From Ornithinibacter sp. (lineage in GTDB: Bacteria; Actinomycetota; Actinomycetes; Actinomycetales; Dermatophilaceae): a stretch of DNA of 64,000 nt. Positions 3,104-60,949 of the stretch are shown piece after piece. Numbering within the stretch: position 1 is the stretch's first letter; each line of letters starts with the position of its first letter. The notes beneath the pieces were generated by a model. It ran no database searches and was not told where the DNA came from. It saw nothing but the letters and a program-made list of their open reading frames with translations. Both the position numbers and the translations under genes were made by a program. The stretch covers positions 9,694 to 73,693 of the forward strand of contig JAQSWG010000034.1 of the NCBI GenBank assembly GCA_029266735.1, written 5' to 3'.

Positions 3104-3744
3104 TCAGTCCAGCGGCCCGCCTGCGACGTAGATGACCTGGCCCGAGACGAAGCCGGCCTCCTCCGAGACGAGGAAGGCGATCGTGGCAGCGATGTCCTCG
3201 GGCTGGCCCACCCGCTGGACGGGGATCTGCCGGGCCGAGTGCTCGATGAAGTCCTCGAACGACACGCCGAGCCGCGCGGCGGTTGCAGCCGTCATGTCGG
3301 TCTGGACGAAGCCGGGCGCGACGGCATTCGCCGTGACCCCGAACCGGCCGAGCTCGATGGCCAGGGTCTTGGTGAACCCCTGGAGTCCCGCCTTGGCCGC
3401 CGAGTAGTTCGCCTGGCCGCGGTTGCCCTGGGCCGAGGAGGACGAGAGGTTGACGACTCTCCCGTACCGCTGCGTGGTCATGTGGGTCTGGCACGCCCTG
3501 GTCATGAGGAAGGCGCCCTTGAGGTGGACGGCCAGGACGGCGTCCCAGTCGTCCTCGGTCATCCGGAAGAGCAGGTTGTCCCGGATGATGCCGGCGTTGT
3601 TGACGAGCACGACCGGCGGGCCCAGCTCCTCGGCCACCCGTGCCACGCCGCTCTCGACCTGCTCGGCACTCGTGACGTCGACCCGCACGGCGGCGGCCCG
3701 CCCCCCGGAGTCGCGGATCCGCGCGGCCACCGCCTCGGGGACAT
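3104..3744 (-). pseudogene. fabG: FabG-like short-chain dehydrogenase lacking its N-terminal NAD(P)-binding motif
   Basis: NNAG, YSAAK and NAVAPG motifs present, but no TGxxxGIG; the RBS-supported ATG at 3744 is out of frame with the conserved body. Confidence 0.75.
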
Positions 3745-10513: not shown

Positions 10514-11471
10514 CGCGGAGCATGCCCTCCTGGGCGACCGTCGCGACGAGGGTGCCCTCCTGCGTGAACATGCGGCCGATGCCCAGCCCGCGACCGCCCT
10601 GGGCGGACGGGGAGTGCTCGGCATAGAGGAGCCACTCGTCCGCACGGGCCGGGCGGTGGAACCACATCGCGTGGTCGAGGCTCGCGGCCCGCAGCCCGGG
10701 GGTCCGCCATGTCTTGCCGTGCCGACGCAGGATCGACTCGAGGAGCGTGTAGTCGGAGGCATAGGCCAACACGGCGTCGTGGACCAGCGGGTCGTCGGGG
10801 AGGTCGCCGATGGCCCGCATCCAGACCCGCTGGTCGGCGACGAGGTCGGTCGCCGGGGTGACGAAGAGGTTGCCCTCGACGTGGCGCTGCTCGATGGCCC
10901 GGTCCTCCGCCAGGTGGCGGGCGGCTGGGTGGTCCACGCCGGCGAAGACGTCGGCGAGGGACGGCACGGCGAGCGGGTCCGGTGCGTCGGGCACCGGGTC
11001 CTGGTGGTCGACACCACCGTCGGGCAGCTGGAAGGACGCGCTCATCGAGAGGATCGGCTTGCCGTGCTGGATCGCGTGCACCCGGCGCGTGGAGAAGGAC
11101 CTGCCGTCGCGCATCCGCTCGACGCTGAAGGTGATCGGCTGCGTGTCGTCGCCCGGGCGCATGAAGTACGCGTGCATCGAGTGCAACCGCCGGTCGGCGC
11201 CGTCCTCGAGCGCGAGAACGGTACGGCCGCACGCGATGACGCCCTGGGCGAGAACCTGACCGCCGAACACCCGTCCATGGGGCTGCTTCTGGCTCTGTCC
11301 GCGGAACAGCGTGATGTCCTCGGCGAACGTCTCGGGCAGCGGGACCCGCTCGTCGCCGGACAGCCCACCCGCGGTCGAGAGCGGCTGGACGCTCACCTGC
11401 GCCGAGCCCAGCTCTTCGAGGTCGAGAGTGGCCAGCAGGTCGAGGAGCGGGGCCGGCTGCGGGGTCGTCAC
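10470..11471 (-). CDS. tesB: Acyl-CoA thioesterase II
   Basis: GRVFGGQVLAQ, HSMHAYF, RDGRSFSTRRV, ASLDHAMWFH, QEGMLR. Confidence 0.9.
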   Translation of the reverse strand: MTTPQPAPLLDLLATLDLEELGSAQVSVQPLSTAGGLSGDERVPLPETFAEDITLFRGQSQKQPHGRVFGGQVLAQGVIACGRTVLALEDGADRRLHSMHAYFMRPGDDTQPITFSVERMRDGRSFSTRRVHAIQHGKPILSMSASFQLPDGGVDHQDPVPDAPDPLAVPSLADVFAGVDHPAARHLAEDRAIEQRHVEGNLFVTPATDLVADQRVWMRAIGDLPDDPLVHDAVLAYASDYTLLESILRRHGKTWRTPGLRAASLDHAMWFHRPARADEWLLYAEHSPSAQGGRGLGIGRMFTQEGTLVATVAQEGMLRVSGGGGRPPRAAAG

Positions 11472-22054: not shown

Positions 22055-22462
22055 TCACTCAGCGGGGACCTGTGCAGGCGGCGGGGGTGGCCCGTGGCCG
22101 GTGTTGACCATCATGTGTGCTGCCCGCTGGAAGTAGTCGCGCATGAGCTCGGCCTTGTCCTCGGGCAGGTCGAGGCTCTCCATCGCGGCCAGCATGTGCC
22201 GTAGCCAACGGTCACGCATGTCGGCGGTCACCGGATAGGGGACGTGCCGCATGCGCAGCCGCGGGTGACCGCGCTCCCGGCTGTATGCCGGCGGTCCGCC
22301 GAAGTACTGCTCCAGGAACATGCGCAGGCGACGTTCGGCGGGCTCGAGGTCCTCGTCGGGATACAGGGCCCGCAGCTCGGGGTCGCTCGCGACTCCCTGG
22401 TAGAACGCGTGGACGAGCCGCTCGAACGTCGGCGCCCCACCGACCTCCTCGTAGATGCTCAC
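22055..22462 (-). CDS. glbO: Group II truncated haemoglobin
   Basis: YEEVGGAPTF, FLEQYFGGP, RGHPRLRMRH, RDRWLRHM. Confidence 0.9.
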   Translation of the reverse strand: MSIYEEVGGAPTFERLVHAFYQGVASDPELRALYPDEDLEPAERRLRMFLEQYFGGPPAYSRERGHPRLRMRHVPYPVTADMRDRWLRHMLAAMESLDLPEDKAELMRDYFQRAAHMMVNTGHGPPPPPAQVPAE

Positions 22463-23289
22463 GGGGGACCTCCCACGGGGCCGCTCAACGGACCGAGCTC
22501 GACCCCCAGGACGGTCGGTGGCTCGACGAGCCGTTCTTCCCACTCGGGGTCGGACCCCATCGCCTCCGTGACCTCGCGGATCACCGAGACGACCCGCTCC
22601 ACGTTCTCGGCGTAGGAGACGGGCATGTCGACGATGGCCGTGGAGTACCCCTGGGACCGGTTGCCGATGCGGATGATCTCACCGTTGCGGACGTACCAGG
22701 TGACCCCGTTCGCGTCGCGGAGTCGGGTGATCCGCAGGGTGACCTCCTCGACGGTCCCTATCGCCTCGCCGGTGTCGACGACGTCACCGACGCCGTACTG
22801 GTCCTCGAGGATCATGGAGATGCCCGCGAGGAAGTCCTTGACGAGGCTCTGGGCGCCGAAGCCGAGCGCGACCCCGGCCACGCCGGCGGACGCGAGGAGC
22901 GGTCCGAGGGGGATGCCGACGAGTGCCATGACGGTGAGCACGGTCAGGGTCACCACGACGAGGGTGACGATGCTGCGCAGCAACGACGCCATGGTCTCCA
23001 CGCGCTGCCGGTGCCGCTCGCTCGCGAGGCCGGCGGCGGATGCGAGGACCCGGCCGGCAGGGCTGGACTCGGCGAACCTCCGGGCGGACGTCGATGTCGT
23101 CGTCACCACCACCCGGTCGATGAGCCGGTGCGCCAGCCAGCGGACCAGGACGGCGAGGACGATGGTCACGAGGATCCGGGCGCCGTCGGTGACGAGCCAG
23201 TCCTGCACCTGCTCCAGCGTCACGGTGGCGGCCTCGAGGCCGCCACGCACGAGGGGTGCGGCGGCGGTCGGTGCCTCAGTCCCGGGCAT
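22459..23289 (-). CDS. MscS family mechanosensitive channel, apparently lacking most of the C-terminal segment
   Basis: GVALGFGAQSLVKDFLAG, EDQYGVGDVV, GTVEEVTLRITRLRD; ends shortly after PPTVLGVE. Confidence 0.85.
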   Translation of the reverse strand: MPGTEAPTAAAPLVRGGLEAATVTLEQVQDWLVTDGARILVTIVLAVLVRWLAHRLIDRVVVTTTSTSARRFAESSPAGRVLASAAGLASERHRQRVETMASLLRSIVTLVVVTLTVLTVMALVGIPLGPLLASAGVAGVALGFGAQSLVKDFLAGISMILEDQYGVGDVVDTGEAIGTVEEVTLRITRLRDANGVTWYVRNGEIIRIGNRSQGYSTAIVDMPVSYAENVERVVSVIREVTEAMGSDPEWEERLVEPPTVLGVELGPLSGPVGGPP

Positions 23290-29211: not shown

Positions 29212-29285
29212 GCGGGTGTAGCTCAATGGTAGAGCCCCAGTCTTCCAAACTGGCTACGCGAGTTCGATTCTCGTCACCCGCTCCA
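29212..29285 (+). tRNA. tRNA-Gly (TCC)
   Basis: GCGGGTGTAGCTCAATGGTAGAGCCCCAGT-CTTCCAA-ACTGG...GTTCGATTC...CACCCGCTCCA. Confidence 0.97.
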
Positions 29286-29523
29286 GCGCCCCGGACATCG
29301 GCCGGAGGTCTGCGGTGATGCGTCGGACGCCGCGCCGACCCGAAGGGCCGGGACCAGCGCCCGCCGTCGATTGGGTGCGCCCCAGCGCGGCCGCTAGCAT
29401 GGGCCCTTGGTGCCGATCCGGTGTGCCGCACCACCGCGTGCCGCTGGAAGGCCCGGTCCGCTGAGACCGGCCCGCACGGCATCCGAACTGATTCCCCGAC
29501 CCCCATGCTGTGGAGTGCCTGAA

Positions 29524-30903
29524 GTGAAGAGTGCCGTCGAGACCCTCAGTCCGACCCGGGTGAAGCTCACCGTCGAGGTGGCCTTCGAGGAGCTGAAGCC
29601 GATGCTCGACGAGGCCTACCGCACCATCGGGGCCTCCGTGCAGATCCCCGGCTTCCGCAAGGGCAAGGTCCCGAGCCGGATCATCGACCAGCGGGTGGGG
29701 CGGGGCGCCGTCGTCCAGGAGGCCGTCAACGAGGCGCTTCCGCGGTTCTTCGCCGAGGCCGCCGAGGCGGAGAACGTCCGCGTCATCGGAAAGCCCGAGG
29801 TCGACGTGACCGCGGTGCCGCTCGAGGAGGGACAGGACCTCGAGTTCACCGTGGAGACCGACGTCCGACCCGAGATCGAGCTGCCCGACCTCGAGGGCAT
29901 CGCCGTCGAGGTCGACGAGGTCACCGCGTCGGAGGAGGACATCGAGGAGCGGCTCACCGCACTGCGTGAGCGCTTCGGCTCCCTCGTCGGCGTCGAGCGG
30001 GCCGTCGAGGACGGCGACTTCGTGAGCATCGACCTCTCCGCCCGCATCGGCGACGAGGAGATCGACTCGGTGACCGGGGTGTCCTACGAGGTGGGTTCCA
30101 ACAACATGCTCGAGGGGCTGGACGAGGCGCTCCTCGGCATGAGTGCGGACGAGAGCACCACGTTCACCGCCCCCCTGGCCGGCGGCGACCACGAGGGCGA
30201 GGAGGCCGAGTGCTTCGTCACGGTGCAGTCCGTGAAGGTGCGAGAGCTGCCCGAGCTGGATGACGAGTTCGCCCAGCTCGCGTCCGAGTTCGACACCCTC
30301 GAGGACCTCCGCGTCGACGTCAGCAGGCAGGCCGAGCAGGCGAAGAAGTACGAGCAGGGTATCCAGGCCCGCGACAAGCTCCTCGAGCAGCTTCTCGAGG
30401 CCGTCGACGTCCCGGTTCCGGACGGCATCGTGGAGGCGGAGGTCCACCAGCACCTCGAGGGGGAGAACCGGCTCGACGACGACGAGCACCGGGCCGAGGT
30501 CCAGGAGAGCACCCGCCGCGCGCTGCGCGCCCAGTTCCTCCTCGACGCCGTCGCCGAGAAGCTCGAGGTCCGTGTCGAGCAGCCGGAGCTCATCGAGTAC
30601 CTCGTGATGAGCGCGCAGCAGTACGGCATGGACCCCAACGAGTTCGCCCAGGCGATCGACCAGCAGGGCCAGATCCCCTCGATCGTCCAGGAGGTGGCCC
30701 GGCGGAAGGCGCTCGCGGCCGTCCTCGACCAGGCGAGGGTCACCGACAGCGCCGGTGCCCAGATCGACCTCGACGAGCTCGTCCCGCAACCCCAGACGGA
30801 GCCGGTGTTCGCGGAGGCCGCCGAGGACGCCAGCTCGACAGCCGAGGCGGACGTTCCCCCCACGGATGCCGAGCTCGCCGCCGACGGGGCCGCGAAGGCC
30901 TGA
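29524..30903 (+). CDS. tig: Trigger factor
   Basis: KSAVETLSPTRVKLTVEV, IPGFRKGKVP, FKBP-like domain. Confidence 0.95.
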   Translation: MKSAVETLSPTRVKLTVEVAFEELKPMLDEAYRTIGASVQIPGFRKGKVPSRIIDQRVGRGAVVQEAVNEALPRFFAEAAEAENVRVIGKPEVDVTAVPLEEGQDLEFTVETDVRPEIELPDLEGIAVEVDEVTASEEDIEERLTALRERFGSLVGVERAVEDGDFVSIDLSARIGDEEIDSVTGVSYEVGSNNMLEGLDEALLGMSADESTTFTAPLAGGDHEGEEAECFVTVQSVKVRELPELDDEFAQLASEFDTLEDLRVDVSRQAEQAKKYEQGIQARDKLLEQLLEAVDVPVPDGIVEAEVHQHLEGENRLDDDEHRAEVQESTRRALRAQFLLDAVAEKLEVRVEQPELIEYLVMSAQQYGMDPNEFAQAIDQQGQIPSIVQEVARRKALAAVLDQARVTDSAGAQIDLDELVPQPQTEPVFAEAAEDASSTAEADVPPTDAELAADGAAKA

Positions 30904-30927
30904 CGAGGCCGTCGCCCGCAGAACCGC

Positions 30928-30967
30928 TGAGAACCCGCCCCCGACGCCTGTCGGGGGCGGGTTCTCA
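30928..30967. terminator. Bidirectional terminator-like hairpin
   Basis: Perfect 18-bp inverted repeat TGAGAACCCGCCCCCGAC-gcct-GTCGGGGGCGGGTTCTCA between convergent tig and lacI. Confidence 0.8.
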
Positions 30968-32080
30968 CGTCTCGGTCGCGGCGACCGGACCGCGCGGCGC
31001 TGACAGCGGTGGGGCGGACGTCGTGCCCACGCTCAGTCGGACCTCGAACGGCTCGTCCCCGACCGGACGGCCCTCGATGGCACGGCGGACCAGTCGCCCC
31101 ATGCGCCGGCCCTTCTCCGCGCCCGGCTGCACGACGGTCGTGAGCACGTGGTCGAGCCACGGGATCTCCACGCCGTCGAAGCCGGTCACCGTGAGGTCCT
31201 CGGGCACCCGGATGGACAGCGACTCCGCGGCGCGGACCACGCCGGCGGCGAGCAGGTCGGCCTGCGCCACGACGGCGGTGGGTCGGTCTCCGACCGGCCG
31301 GTCGAGGAGGAGCCGGGCCGCCGCCTCGCCGGCCTCCACGGTGAGGTCGTGCGCCTGGACGATCGGCGCATCGTCGCCGACGATCGACCGGAACCCGGCC
31401 ACGCGCCCTGCGGCGTCAGGGTATGCCGCCTCCCGGACGTCCTCGTCGGTCACCCACCCGGTCCCCGACGAGGGCCGGAGAGGCATGGTGAGGTGGGCGA
31501 TGCGCGAGTGCCCGAGGTCCACGACGTGCCGGGTCACGAGGGCCATGGCCGCGCTCTCGTCGGTGAGGACGTGAGCGACGTCGGGGTGCAGCGGGGCGCC
31601 GCCGGCGACCAGCGGTATGCCCCGGGCCCTGAGGTGGCCGACGAGGGGGTTGTCGCGGTGGCCGCACAGGGGGAAGACCGCGGCGTCGACGGCCTGGGTG
31701 GCGAGCTGGGCGACTGCGCGCTCGGGATCGTCGAGCGGCTGCGCGACGAGGAGCATGGTTCGTCCTGCCGCGTCGAGCTCCTCGGCCAGACCGTCGAGGA
31801 CCGCCAGGGCGAAGGGGTCGTGGAAGGCGTACCGCAGTGGCCCTTCGACGACGACCGCGACAGTGCCGACCCGGCCCTGGCGCAGCGACGAGGCGAGAGG
31901 GTCCGGACCGGCATACGCGAGGGCGCCGGCCGCGGCCCGAACCCGGTCGGCGGTCGCCGAGGCGACCGGTCCCTTGCCGCTGAAGACGAGGGAGGCGGTG
32001 GACGTCGACACCCCGGCTCGCCGCGCGACGTCGCGCAGGGTCGGCCGACGGGGCGGCCTGGTTTGACGTCGCGAGTCCAT
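30965..32080 (-). CDS. LacI family transcriptional regulator
   Basis: TLRDVARRAGVSTSTASLVFSG, DLTVTGFDG, LTTVVQP; TATTGT 7 nt before the ATG. Confidence 0.92.
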   Translation of the reverse strand: MDSRRQTRPPRRPTLRDVARRAGVSTSTASLVFSGKGPVASATADRVRAAAGALAYAGPDPLASSLRQGRVGTVAVVVEGPLRYAFHDPFALAVLDGLAEELDAAGRTMLLVAQPLDDPERAVAQLATQAVDAAVFPLCGHRDNPLVGHLRARGIPLVAGGAPLHPDVAHVLTDESAAMALVTRHVVDLGHSRIAHLTMPLRPSSGTGWVTDEDVREAAYPDAAGRVAGFRSIVGDDAPIVQAHDLTVEAGEAAARLLLDRPVGDRPTAVVAQADLLAAGVVRAAESLSIRVPEDLTVTGFDGVEIPWLDHVLTTVVQPGAEKGRRMGRLVRRAIEGRPVGDEPFEVRLSVGTTSAPPLSAPRGPVAATET

Positions 32081-42468: not shown

Positions 42469-43137
42469 ATGGCCTACCGACTGCGCGCCGGTGACACCGG
42501 ACCGGTGCAACAGTCGCCGGTCACGTGCGGGTCCGCCTGCCTGACCGTCGCCCGCATGCTCGTCGACCCGCACTTCGCGTCGTGGATCCGGACCGGCAGC
42601 CCGGTTCTTCCCGGATCGCCCGCTGGGGCAACCGAGGCCGAGCGCTTCGCGGCCTACGAGCGGGTCGTCATGAGGAGGACCAACGGGATCCTCGGCGGTG
42701 GTCGGCCGTCGGTTCCGTGGCCTCGGCGCCTCGGGACCCCGCCCTGGGGGGCGCTGCGGGAGCTCGAGCTGGGTGCGGCCCGACGCGGCACCGAGTACAC
42801 GATCGAGGTGCTACGCACCGATGACGAGACCGAGCTGGTGCGGGCGTTCGACACCCTCGTCGACGTCGTGGCCGAGGGTGAGCCGGCGCTGCTGTACGTC
42901 GGCAGCCGGCTCCTGCCTCGTCACGTCGTCCTCGTCCTTCCGGGGGACGGCGACCGGATGCTCGACGTCTACGACCCGACGACGGGCCGGGTCGACCACC
43001 TGCGCCGGGACACGGTCGTGCATCGACGACTCGGCCTCAGCGGCTGGGACATCCCCTGGGTCGTCGTGCGGCCCACCGGTCTGCGGACCGTCCGGTCGCT
43101 GGCCTACGCCGCGGACCTCGGTCCGGCCCCGGCCTGA
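42469..43137 (+). CDS. Putative papain-like (C39-like) cysteine peptidase
   Basis: [11 protein letters not shown] (Gln/Cys), PRHVVLV (His), YDP (Asp). Confidence 0.6.
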
Positions 43138-43167
43138 CCGGTACCAATCCCGCCCAGGCGTGCGGCG

Positions 43168-45697
43168 TCAGGCGACCGGCTTGGCGACCGGCACGAGCTC
43201 GACGTCCCGCGCCCCCAGCTCCTCGCCGAGGGCGTAGTCGAGCGCCCCGGTGAGGCGACCGGCAGCCCGGAGGTCGGGCTCCGCGACGCGCACGTGGGCG
43301 AGCACCTCGTCCGATCCGACCAACGTCATCGACGGAACCTCGGCCCGCATGCCGACCTTCGCCTCGGACTTCGCCTTGCGGATGGCGGCCAGCGCGGCAC
43401 CGACGGCTCCGAGCATCTCCGGCCGGCGCGAACAGCCGGAGGACCACGTCGAGCGCGAGGCGCAGGGTGGCGCGTGCGCTGGCCGCGGCGGCGTCGCCCT
43501 GCGCACCGTACGCGCGGTCCTTGACGAGCTCCAGGTAGTCGTCGCAGAAGCTCCAGAAGAACTGCTCGGTGACCTCGAGGGCGCGCGTGAAGTCCCACGC
43601 CTCGAAGCTCTCGGTGGCCCGCTCGACGACGTCGCGCAGGCCCGCGAGGAGGGCCAGGTCGAGCGGATGGCTGACCTGCGCGCGCGGGTCACCGGCGACG
43701 TCGCCGAACGACAACGCGAACTTGCTCGCGTTGAGCACCTTGATCGCCAGGCGACGGCCGACCTTGATCTGGCCGGTGTCGTACGCCGCGTCCGTGCCGA
43801 GGCGACCGCTGGCCGCCCAGTAGCGCACGGCATCCGCACTGTGCAGCTTGAGGACCTCCTCGGGCGTGACGACGTTCCCGCGCGACTTGGCCATCTTCTT
43901 CCGGTCGGGATCGAGGATCCAGCCGCTGATCGCGGCGTGCGCCCATGGGACGCAGCCGTGCTCGAAGTGCGAGCGCACCACCGTGGAGAAGAGCCAGGTC
44001 CGGATGATGTCGTGCCCCTGGGGGCGCACGTCCATCGGGAAGACCTTCTCGAACAACGGGTCCGGTGAGGAGCCGTCGCTCCCACGCCAGCCGCCGGCGA
44101 TCTGAGGGGTGAGCGATGACGTCGCCCACGTGTCGAAGATGTCGGCGTCGCCCACGAAACCGCCGGGCACGCCGCGCTGGTCCTCGGTGAAGCCGGCCGG
44201 CGGGTTCGCCGCCGGGTCCACCGGCAGCTCGGCCTCCGAGGGGACGATGGGGTGGTCGTAGTCGGTCTCCCCGTCGGCTGCGACCGGGTACCAGACCGGG
44301 ATCGGGACACCGAAGAACCGCTGCCGCGACACGAGCCAGTCACCGTTGAGGCCGCTGACCCAGTTGGCGTACCGCGAGCGCATGAAGGAAGGGTGGAACT
44401 CGATCTCCTCACCGCGCCGGATGAGAGCCGCGTTGAGGTCCGCGTCCCGGCCGCCGTTGCGGATGTACCACTGGCGGGAGGTGACGATCTCCAGGGGCTT
44501 CTCGCCGCGCTCGTAGAAGTTGGCCATCCGCTTGGTCGGGGTGGGCTCGCCCTCGAGGTCGCCGGACTCACGGAGGGCGGCGACCACGGCCTCACGCGCC
44601 CCGAACGCGCTCTTCCCGGCCAGCTCGCCGTCGTACAGGTGCTCACCCGGCCCGCCGAGCAGCCACTCCGGCACCTCGCGCTGGAGGCGGCCGGTGCGCG
44701 TGATGAGCGAGCGGGTCGGCAGCCGCAGCTCACGCCACCAGATGACGTCGGTGAGGTCACCGAAGGTGCAGCACATCGCGATACCGGCGCCCTTGTCCAT
44801 CTCGACGGCCGGGTGCGCCAGGACCGGCACCTCGACGCCGAAGAGGGGAGTGCGCACGGTCGTGCCGAACAGCCGCTGGTAGCGCTCGTCCTCGGGGTGG
44901 GCGATGAGGGCGACGCAGCTCGGGATGAGCTCGGGGCGAGTCGTCTCGACGTGGACCGGACCGTCGGCTGCGTGGAAGGCGATGCGGTGGTAGTGGCCGG
45001 GATAGTCGCGCGCCTCGAGCTCCGCCTGGGCCACCGCGGTCTGGAAGGTGACGTCCCACAACCCCGGAGCCTCCGCCTGGTACGCCTCACCCCGGGTGAC
45101 GTTGCGCAGGAACGCCTGCTGGGCGGTGGCGCGTGAGGTGTCGTCGATCGTCCGGTAGCTGATGGACCAGTCATAGCTGTGACCGATCCGCCGGAAGAGC
45201 GACTCGAAGGTCGCCTCGTCCTTGACGGTGAGCTCCTCGCAGAGCTCGATGAAGTTCTGGCGCGAGATGGGCGTCTCGTCGGCGGCCCTCGTGCTGCGGG
45301 CGTCGCCGCGGAACGGCGGCTCGAAGTCGGGGTCGTGGTGCAAGGTGGCGTCGCCACGCACGCCGTAGTAGTTCTGGACGCGCTTCTCGGTGGGGAGACC
45401 GTTGTCGTCCCACCCGATGGGGTAGAAGACGTTGAAGCCGGCCATCCGCTTGTAGCGGGCGACGCAGTCGGTGTGCGTGTAGCTGAAGACGTGGCCCATG
45501 TGGAGAGAGCCGCTCGCCGTGGGCGGAGGGGTGTCGATGGAGAAGACGTCCTCCCGCGGTCCTGCCAGCGCCGCCTCACGGTCGAACGCGTAGGTGCCCT
45601 CCTCCTGCCAGACCGGGCCCCACTTGTCCTCGAGACCGTCCAGTGACGGCCGGTCCGGCACGGAGGCAGCGCGGGGCGAGGGGAAGGGCTCGGTCAT
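43168..45697 (-). CDS. valS: Valine--tRNA ligase (type 2/archaeal-like) with an apparent frameshifting deletion near the 3' end
   Basis: [18 protein letters not shown]; main frame loses homology after LRLFAP (about 43424); native C-terminus [14 protein letters not shown] continues in another frame to the stop at 43168. Confidence 0.9.
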
Positions 45698-45805
45698 GGC
45701 CGACATCCTCCCAGACCTCCGGGCAGGTGCTCACCCGGGTTCGGCCCCGTGGGGCGCTGCGGGACGCTGGCACCGGGGAGCGGACGCTGGCCTAGGGTGA
45801 GGGCC

Positions 45806-50647: not shown

Positions 50648-51779
50648 GCACGACCACCCGGTCCCGGGCGCCTCGGTGCGCGACTCGCGCCGCCGGCCGC
50701 AGCGGTGCGGGGGTGAGGTATGCCGGCAGCGCGCCGACGAGCAGCCCGACGACGGGTGCGAGGGGGAGGGGCGGCACGGCCAGCGGGGTGAGGGGCATCA
50801 CGAGCAGCTCGGGCGTCATGCGAGACACGGTCACCAGCGTGGCGGCGGCGAAGACCCCGCAACCGACGGTCAGCCACTCCGCGCCACGCCAGGGGTCGGG
50901 CCGGTACGTCGTCCGCGGCACGTGCCGCCCGCCGAGCCAGAGGCCCAGGCCGGAGAGGGCCAGGCCCGCGAGGAGGGTCGGGGTGCCCATCATGGCCGGC
51001 GTCGTCGCGTCGAGCACGCCGTAGATGCCGACGGCACTGGCGAGGAGACCCCCGAGGGTCACCGCACCCGTGACGAGCCGGTGCCCCCGGGGCACGTGCT
51101 CGGTCCGGCCGTACCCACGGGAGTCCATCGCCGCGGCGAGGAGCAGGGACCGCTCGAGAGTGTCCTCGAGGACGGGAAGAGCGACGGTGGGGACGGCGCG
51201 GAGCCCACGCGTCGTGTCACCGCGAAGCTGTCGTGCCCGGAGGACCCGCTGCACGCTCTCCGCGAGCTGGGGCGCGACCGACACCGACACCACCACGGCC
51301 GAGCCGATCTCGTGGAGGGCGCCGGGAAGGGCGCGCAACAGCCGTTTCGGGTTCGCGAGCGCGTTGGCGGCACCGATGCAGGCGATCATGACCGCGAGGC
51401 GCAGACCGGCGAGGGCGGCGGCCAGCAGACCTTCCAGGTAGACCGTCCCGCCGACCTGGATGCCGGCCGCCCACGACGGGAGAGTCACCTCGGGGAGCCG
51501 GAGGACCACGATCTCCCCGAACTTCAGGCCCACGAGCACGTGCAGCACGACTCGCACGACGACGATGGCGAGGCCGAGCCAGAGGTACAACCGGAACGCC
51601 CTCGCCCACGGCGACGTCCCGCGGCGGGCGGCGACGACCAGGGCCACCACGCACAGGGCCAGGAGGAGCAGGACGGGGTTCGTCGTCGTGCTGGCCGCGA
51701 CCGCCATGCCGATGGCCCACCCCCACCACGCCGCGGGGTGCACGGCGCGCGGGAGGCTGGACGTCATCGGACCGGTCAT
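50640..51779 (-). CDS. ECF transporter T component (CbiQ/EcfT family)
   Basis: HPAAWWGW, NPKRLLR, RARQLRG, AAAMDSRGYG. Confidence 0.88.
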   Translation of the reverse strand: MTGPMTSSLPRAVHPAAWWGWAIGMAVAASTTTNPVLLLLALCVVALVVAARRGTSPWARAFRLYLWLGLAIVVVRVVLHVLVGLKFGEIVVLRLPEVTLPSWAAGIQVGGTVYLEGLLAAALAGLRLAVMIACIGAANALANPKRLLRALPGALHEIGSAVVVSVSVAPQLAESVQRVLRARQLRGDTTRGLRAVPTVALPVLEDTLERSLLLAAAMDSRGYGRTEHVPRGHRLVTGAVTLGGLLASAVGIYGVLDATTPAMMGTPTLLAGLALSGLGLWLGGRHVPRTTYRPDPWRGAEWLTVGCGVFAAATLVTVSRMTPELLVMPLTPLAVPPLPLAPVVGLLVGALPAYLTPAPLRPAARVAHRGARDRVVVRG

Positions 51780-60355: not shown

Positions 60356-60949
60356 CTAGGGCTGGTACCGGAAGCCGCCGTCAGCGCAGAACGCAGTGCT
60401 GGCGTAGTGGTCATTGGTAAGGCATTGGCCGTCTGCCAGACCCTGGCAGTTTGCAGCCCCAGGTTCTCCCGGAGCGACGACGAAGGTGACGATCACGCGG
60501 TCGCGCTTGACCTCGATCTCCGGCTCCTTGACCGTGCCCGTCACGCCGCTGTTGCACCCCACTCGGGTCACGAGGACCTCAAGCTGTTTCGACGTGGGAC
60601 CGACCTCTTGTCCCGGCGCGAGCGTCCACGAGGCGTCGGCGGTGTCGCCCGGCAACGCTCCACAGCCGCCGAGGAGCACGTCCGCGCCTGAGACCCTCTG
60701 TGCGCGGTACGGCCTCAGCCGTCGAGGCTCCGGTGCGTAGGTGACGCTGACACAGTCGTTCACGCGTAGGCGCTGCGTGACCTGGTCCTTTACGAAGCAC
60801 TCGCCACTGGCCTCCGGCCCACCGATACAGACAGTGTGGGTGTCGACCTCAGTCACTGGCCCGACGTAGGTCCGCGTCTCCGCGCCGGACCTGGTGCAGC
60901 CCGCGATCATCACCGAAGCAGCGAGCGCTGCGAGCAGCAGCCGAATCAT
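60356..60949 (-). CDS. Hypothetical lipoprotein, possibly a chimera of two lipoprotein genes
   Basis: N-terminal lipobox IAGC plus an internal lipobox LLGGC at residue 96. Confidence 0.55.
   Translation of the reverse strand: MIRLLLAALAASVMIAGCTRSGAETRTYVGPVTEVDTHTVCIGGPEASGECFVKDQVTQRLRVNDCVSVTYAPEPRRLRPYRAQRVSGADVLLGGCGALPGDTADASWTLAPGQEVGPTSKQLEVLVTRVGCNSGVTGTVKEPEIEVKRDRVIVTFVVAPGEPGAANCQGLADGQCLTNDHYASTAFCADGGFRYQP

Follow-up and report, generated by a model that had tools for sequence, protein, structure and literature searches.

A 101-base gap in valS of a draft actinobacterial genome is probably an error of assembly

In the stretch of 64,000 nucleotides analysed here (the window), the gene for valine-tRNA ligase, valS, does not read through to its end. 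The open reading frame as it stands spans 45706..43037 on the minus strand: it runs in good order as far as LRLFAP, and then passes into arginine-rich nonsense. A second frame takes up the protein again and ends at 43168 with the residues VPVAKPVA and a stop codon. Does this break belong to the organism, or only to the sequence that was assembled from it? The source genome (161 contigs, 3.16 Mb, no Ns, 94% complete) appears to have been assembled from a metagenome and to represent a Dermatophilaceae bacterium close to Ornithinibacter.

Apart from the break, the gene is easily recognized. It starts at 45697, with an alternative ATG upstream at 45706. The N-terminal part, codons 1-758, comprises the catalytic and editing parts along with the first half of the anticodon-binding domain, and both class I motifs, HMGH and KMAKS, are legible in its translation. 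The reading frame as it stands scores 1295.7 bits against the NCBIfam profile alt_ValS (NF000540; cut-off 900), with profile positions 1-730 matched by the first frame and 760-824 by the second. Its score against TIGR00422 lies below that profile's cut-off, which assigns it to the alt_ValS type rather than to the canonical bacterial one. The break itself falls within the anticodon-binding domain: the window's product covers positions 3-77 of the 148 in PF08264, as against 3-144 in the intact allele described below, and a complete anticodon-binding domain joined in one frame to the C-terminus is not present in the window's valS. The read-through tail, which is an artefact of the frame change, enters the 3' end of the convergent neighbouring gene.

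Table 1. Parts of the broken valS gene and the other deletions private to the window, in window coordinates.
Feature	Position	Strand	Size	Microhomology	Remarks
valS codons 1-758, alt_ValS-type valine-tRNA ligase	43424..45697	-			Profile matches; 100% identical to intact 876-aa allele P0005
valS deletion junction	43423..43424		101 nt absent between the two bases	0 nt (blunt)	Segment present in all relatives and same-strain contigs
valS codons 793-876 and stop	43168..43422	-			Out of frame with N-terminal part; same as intact allele, no decay
Read-through tail of valS reading frame	43037..43423	-	~128 codons		Out-of-frame translation
Short-chain dehydrogenase (SDR) deletion	3737..3738		115 nt	1 nt	Gene 3104..~3860 (-), 251 aa in same-strain contigs
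Intergenic hairpin deletion	10516..10517		93 nt	2 nt	Between convergent genes
mscS deletion	22498..22499	-	132 nt, in frame	1 nt	319-320 aa in same-strain contigs
Predicted lipoprotein deletion	60440..60441 (reading frame 60356..60949)	-	54 nt, in frame	0 nt	

The break can be placed to the base. A preliminary description, made from the letters of the window, had noticed that the main frame drifts after LRLFAP while a second frame resumes, and had put the junction at about 43423; it lies exactly between 43424, the last base of codon 758 (Pro), and 43423. The assembly reads CATCTCCGGC up to this point and CGGCGCGAAC beyond it, and the junction cannot be slid either way, hence the absence of microhomology. 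What is missing are codons 759-791 and two bases of codon 792: in all, 101 nt (72% G+C) and 34 residues. The earlier estimate of roughly 30 missing codons comes close to this, and the pattern is not due to chance: the segment is present in all the relatives and same-strain contigs examined. The contention that a frameshift alone could not restore the protein is also borne out, since residues and frame are both lost with the 101 nt.

Relatives of the organism do not share this arrangement. Each of the 20 searched has one valS locus, at the syntenic place, and in every one the DNA alignment to the window breaks at 43423. The 101-nt region is kept in 12 loci from same-genus and same-order relatives. 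All of the same-genus loci aligned at the junction (nine of nine) have a net 101 nt more than the window, and one same-order locus, L014, has 110 nt more. Every intact valS of the relatives runs in one frame through the pattern LRL[F/L]AP-[IV]...WP....VP.GG....L..VG, and the frame change is common to none of them. The preliminary description would have fallen if close homologues had been without the same segment; all homologues have it.

One same-genus relative presents a split valS of its own, spread over three frames (G006:C7:29259-31480; matches at 29259-30311, 30316-30612, and 30605-31480). This suggests that the assembly of that relative also contains frameshift errors.

Other assemblies of the same strain allow a closer comparison. 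A protein search returned eight intact valine-tRNA ligases of 876 or 879 aa (P0003-P0008, P0010, and P0011), all from JGI and ENA metagenome assemblies and all 100% identical to the window over residues 300-761. One of these, the 876-residue P0005, is the same as the window before and after the break, over residues 1-758 and again over 793-876; it differs in having residues 759-792 (101 nt), which the window is without. At the DNA level, six contigs, each from a different ENA metagenome assembly, align to the window with 99.8-99.95% identity over up to 22.5 kb, the exception being L028 (ERZ27298496), with 98.0% identity and 12 small gaps on the downstream flank. Five of the six encode P0005 and one encodes P0006. 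The 101-nt segment is present in all six, L028 included, and in the five others it is the sole gap relative to the window. Gene order is the same as in the window where the P0005 allele occurs (ERZ28613402, ERZ27298496, ERZ28613565, ERZ28621297, and ERZ27298500). The only recorded source of the frameshifted product, P0009, is the 80,689-nt contig to which the window belongs, and none of the other same-strain assemblies has a contig break at the valS site. A scan of JGI metagenome contigs for an exact match to the left flank gave no matches.

The valS gap is not the only one of its kind. The window was first compared with three congeners, revealing sharp window-specific losses at about 3737, 10516, 22498, and 43423. 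It was then compared with same-strain contigs obtained through neighbouring genes, covering window positions 1-31695 and 33168-64000 as well as 4.8 kb of the contig. Over this extent, gaps of at least 10 nt amount to only five deletions, all of them private to the window (Table 1). The deletion in the SDR gene takes the start codon along with the N-terminal TGxxxGIG Rossmann motif. That in mscS, seen against eight same-strain contigs and the three congeners, costs the gene 44 codons close to its C-terminus; a truncated-globin gene, with its start at 22462, lies directly downstream of mscS. The predicted lipoprotein has lost 18 codons, and has 197 aa in the window versus 215 aa in five same-strain contigs. 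(The globin gene has three substitutions of its own within window positions 22341-22355, at -157, -156, and -143 relative to 22498, which are private to the window against eight same-strain contigs.)

The intergenic deletion removes a perfect or near-perfect hairpin of about 30 bp, with a predicted DNA fold of -53 kcal/mol (z = -9.35). In four other assemblies, contigs stop here, and one MEGAHIT contig is missing 66 nt of the hairpin; the site is therefore demonstrably hard to assemble.

A further deletion was found on another contig of the same genome (C152 of G000, about position 51553), where 21 kb were compared: a private, in-frame loss of 39 nt in a MatE transporter gene. This spot is variable between strains, with two diverged haplotypes among the same-strain contigs, and the sequence after the deletion mixes both. 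In a third contig, C46, 21 kb compared with same-strain contigs contained no private deletion. The count therefore comes to six deletions of 39-132 nt in about 109 kb compared, otherwise with no gap of 10 nt or more, and their spread is uneven. Contig C45 accounts for five of them within about 67 kb; the 21 kb of C152 hold a single one, and the 21 kb of C46 hold none. They strike unrelated sites irrespective of function, namely SDR, the intergenic hairpin, mscS, valS, the lipoprotein, and MatE.

Do the junctions have anything in common? The microhomology of 0-2 nt at the five window junctions looks like chance level for DNA this rich in G+C. Short inverted repeats are created at three of the five: CCGGCCGG at valS, CGAGCTCG, and CTGCCAG-ACC-CTGGCAG (7 bp) at the lipoprotein site. 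The valS palindrome is unremarkable alone (P = 0.14), and the lipoprotein one, at the 60440 junction, has P of about 0.006 versus random positions. Summed over the five junctions the palindromes reach P of about 0.016, a post hoc figure that is driven by the lipoprotein site.

Three candidate causes for the losses were tried and rejected. Collapse of a SNP bubble of fixed k-mer size does not agree with sizes that range from 39 to 132 nt, nor with the placement of strain SNPs, which lie inside the segments and not at their edges, with none at 22498. No clear change from one strain haplotype to another was seen at the junctions. Strong secondary structure in the lost segments is confined to the 93-nt intergenic hairpin. 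For the valS segment in particular, nothing was found that would predict trouble there: its structure is ordinary (z = 0.27), no breaks occur at it elsewhere, and there is no haplotype switch.

Together, these comparisons make it very probable that the valS deletion arose through a local error of assembly, or of contig joining, in a metagenome-assembled genome. This reading is the best supported because at least six same-strain assemblies have an intact allele that is identical to the window to either side of the break, and because the same assembly has five further blunt deletions. Independent assemblies of the same population do not have the lesion, and similar lesions recur within this one. 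The pattern fits errors made in building the draft: a genome diverged from intact strains by about 0.1% in substitutions would hardly carry blunt deletions of 40-130 nt every 15-20 kb, irrespective of gene function and with its sole valS included. Judged from these alignments, the valS of the organism is almost certainly an ordinary, intact gene of 876 codons.

How might such an error arise? Two stretches of sequence would have been joined directly during assembly, and the 101 bases of valS between them dropped. One candidate step is the direct joining of adjacent contigs where a short interval had not been assembled, without Ns to mark it; alternatively, consensus without mapped reads may have been removed. 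We infer an assembly process, rather than mutation, as the cause; the exact step is a guess. The preliminary description had proposed two causes, an assembly error or a second valS copy elsewhere. The first has been strengthened, by at least six intact same-strain assemblies and five further deletions, and the second has not, none having been found in the genome.

The alternative that survives best, although it is unlikely, takes the 101-nt deletion as real: the sampled population, or a sub-lineage dominating the reads, would carry a freshly inactivated valS, for example through end joining after a double-strand break. Actinobacteria possess end joining of the Ku/LigD type, with which blunt junctions without microhomology are compatible, and the total absence of decay downstream would suit a very recent event. 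If the deletion were true, however, half of the anticodon-binding domain would be lost and everything downstream put out of frame; valS is essential and here single-copy, and the frameshift would be lethal. The deleted form is found in no other assembly, and the intact form in many. Moreover, six deletions in about 109 kb would extrapolate to well over a hundred genome-wide at a divergence of only about 0.1% from intact strains, which does not fit a viable lineage.

A broader version of the same idea, with rather poorer prospects, is a natural lineage that accumulates blunt deletions of 40-130 nt, some with palindromic junctions and one in its sole valS. Such a lineage, if it were true, would mean either that deletions arise by an unusual process or that the DNA came from a subpopulation that was dying or non-viable.

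Less probable still, the valS of the window might be a true pseudogene with a functional counterpart elsewhere, either on another replicon or in the 6% of the genome that was not assembled. Completeness of 94% does leave room for a missing gene. Within that 94%, however, neither a valS protein query nor PF00133 found a second valS: the protein query matches only valS itself and ileS, the latter being the only other strong match, and PF00133 adds only weak matches, on other contigs. The single syntenic valS in each of the 20 relatives likewise speaks against a second copy. A pseudogene would also be expected to decay downstream of its lesion, but the 84 codons after the break are those of the intact allele.

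Finally, programmed ribosomal frameshifting or some other recoding, which the meeting of two open frames at one point might bring to mind, is effectively excluded by the alignment to relatives, which read in one frame, and by the loss of 34 conserved residues, the LPYVTEEVW helix among them, that no frameshift can supply.

If the gap in valS is an assembly error, as seems by far the best account, then it is not a biological feature, and its value lies in the warning that it gives about the quality of this genome. The genome serves as a species representative, and there is about one such deletion per 15-20 kb in the parts examined. Apparent pseudogenes, truncated proteins, and "missing" domains here need checking against other assemblies of the same strain; SDR (about 3737), mscS (about 22498), and the lipoprotein (about 60440) are examples.

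Two known systems offer points of comparison, one for the protein and one for the error. The valine-tRNA ligase of Thermus thermophilus (PDB 1GAX, 1IVS, and 1IYW) aligns to residues 144-820 of the intact allele, although the enzyme encoded here belongs to a different type, alt_ValS (NF000540), from the canonical bacterial one. On this alignment, the segment lost in the window corresponds approximately to 1GAX residues 682-716 (PMMPFLTSELYQ...), which make up the final helix in the anticodon-binding bundle and the linker after it.

It is documented that metagenome-assembled genomes contain local assembly errors, and that these corrupt gene sequences in public databases (PMC7111523). Chen et al. 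(2020, Genome Res) reported 13 such errors in a single genome of 1.13 Mb (PMC7111523). The deletions described here resemble those errors (PMC7111523) in being private to one assembly, in occurring several to a genome, and in yielding incomplete or incorrect protein-coding sequences. They differ in how they were recognized, the errors of Chen et al. (PMC7111523) being defined by absent perfect read support and those here being recognized by comparison between assemblies. They also differ from those of Chen et al. (PMC7111523) in form: all of the errors here are clean deletions, of 39-132 nt.
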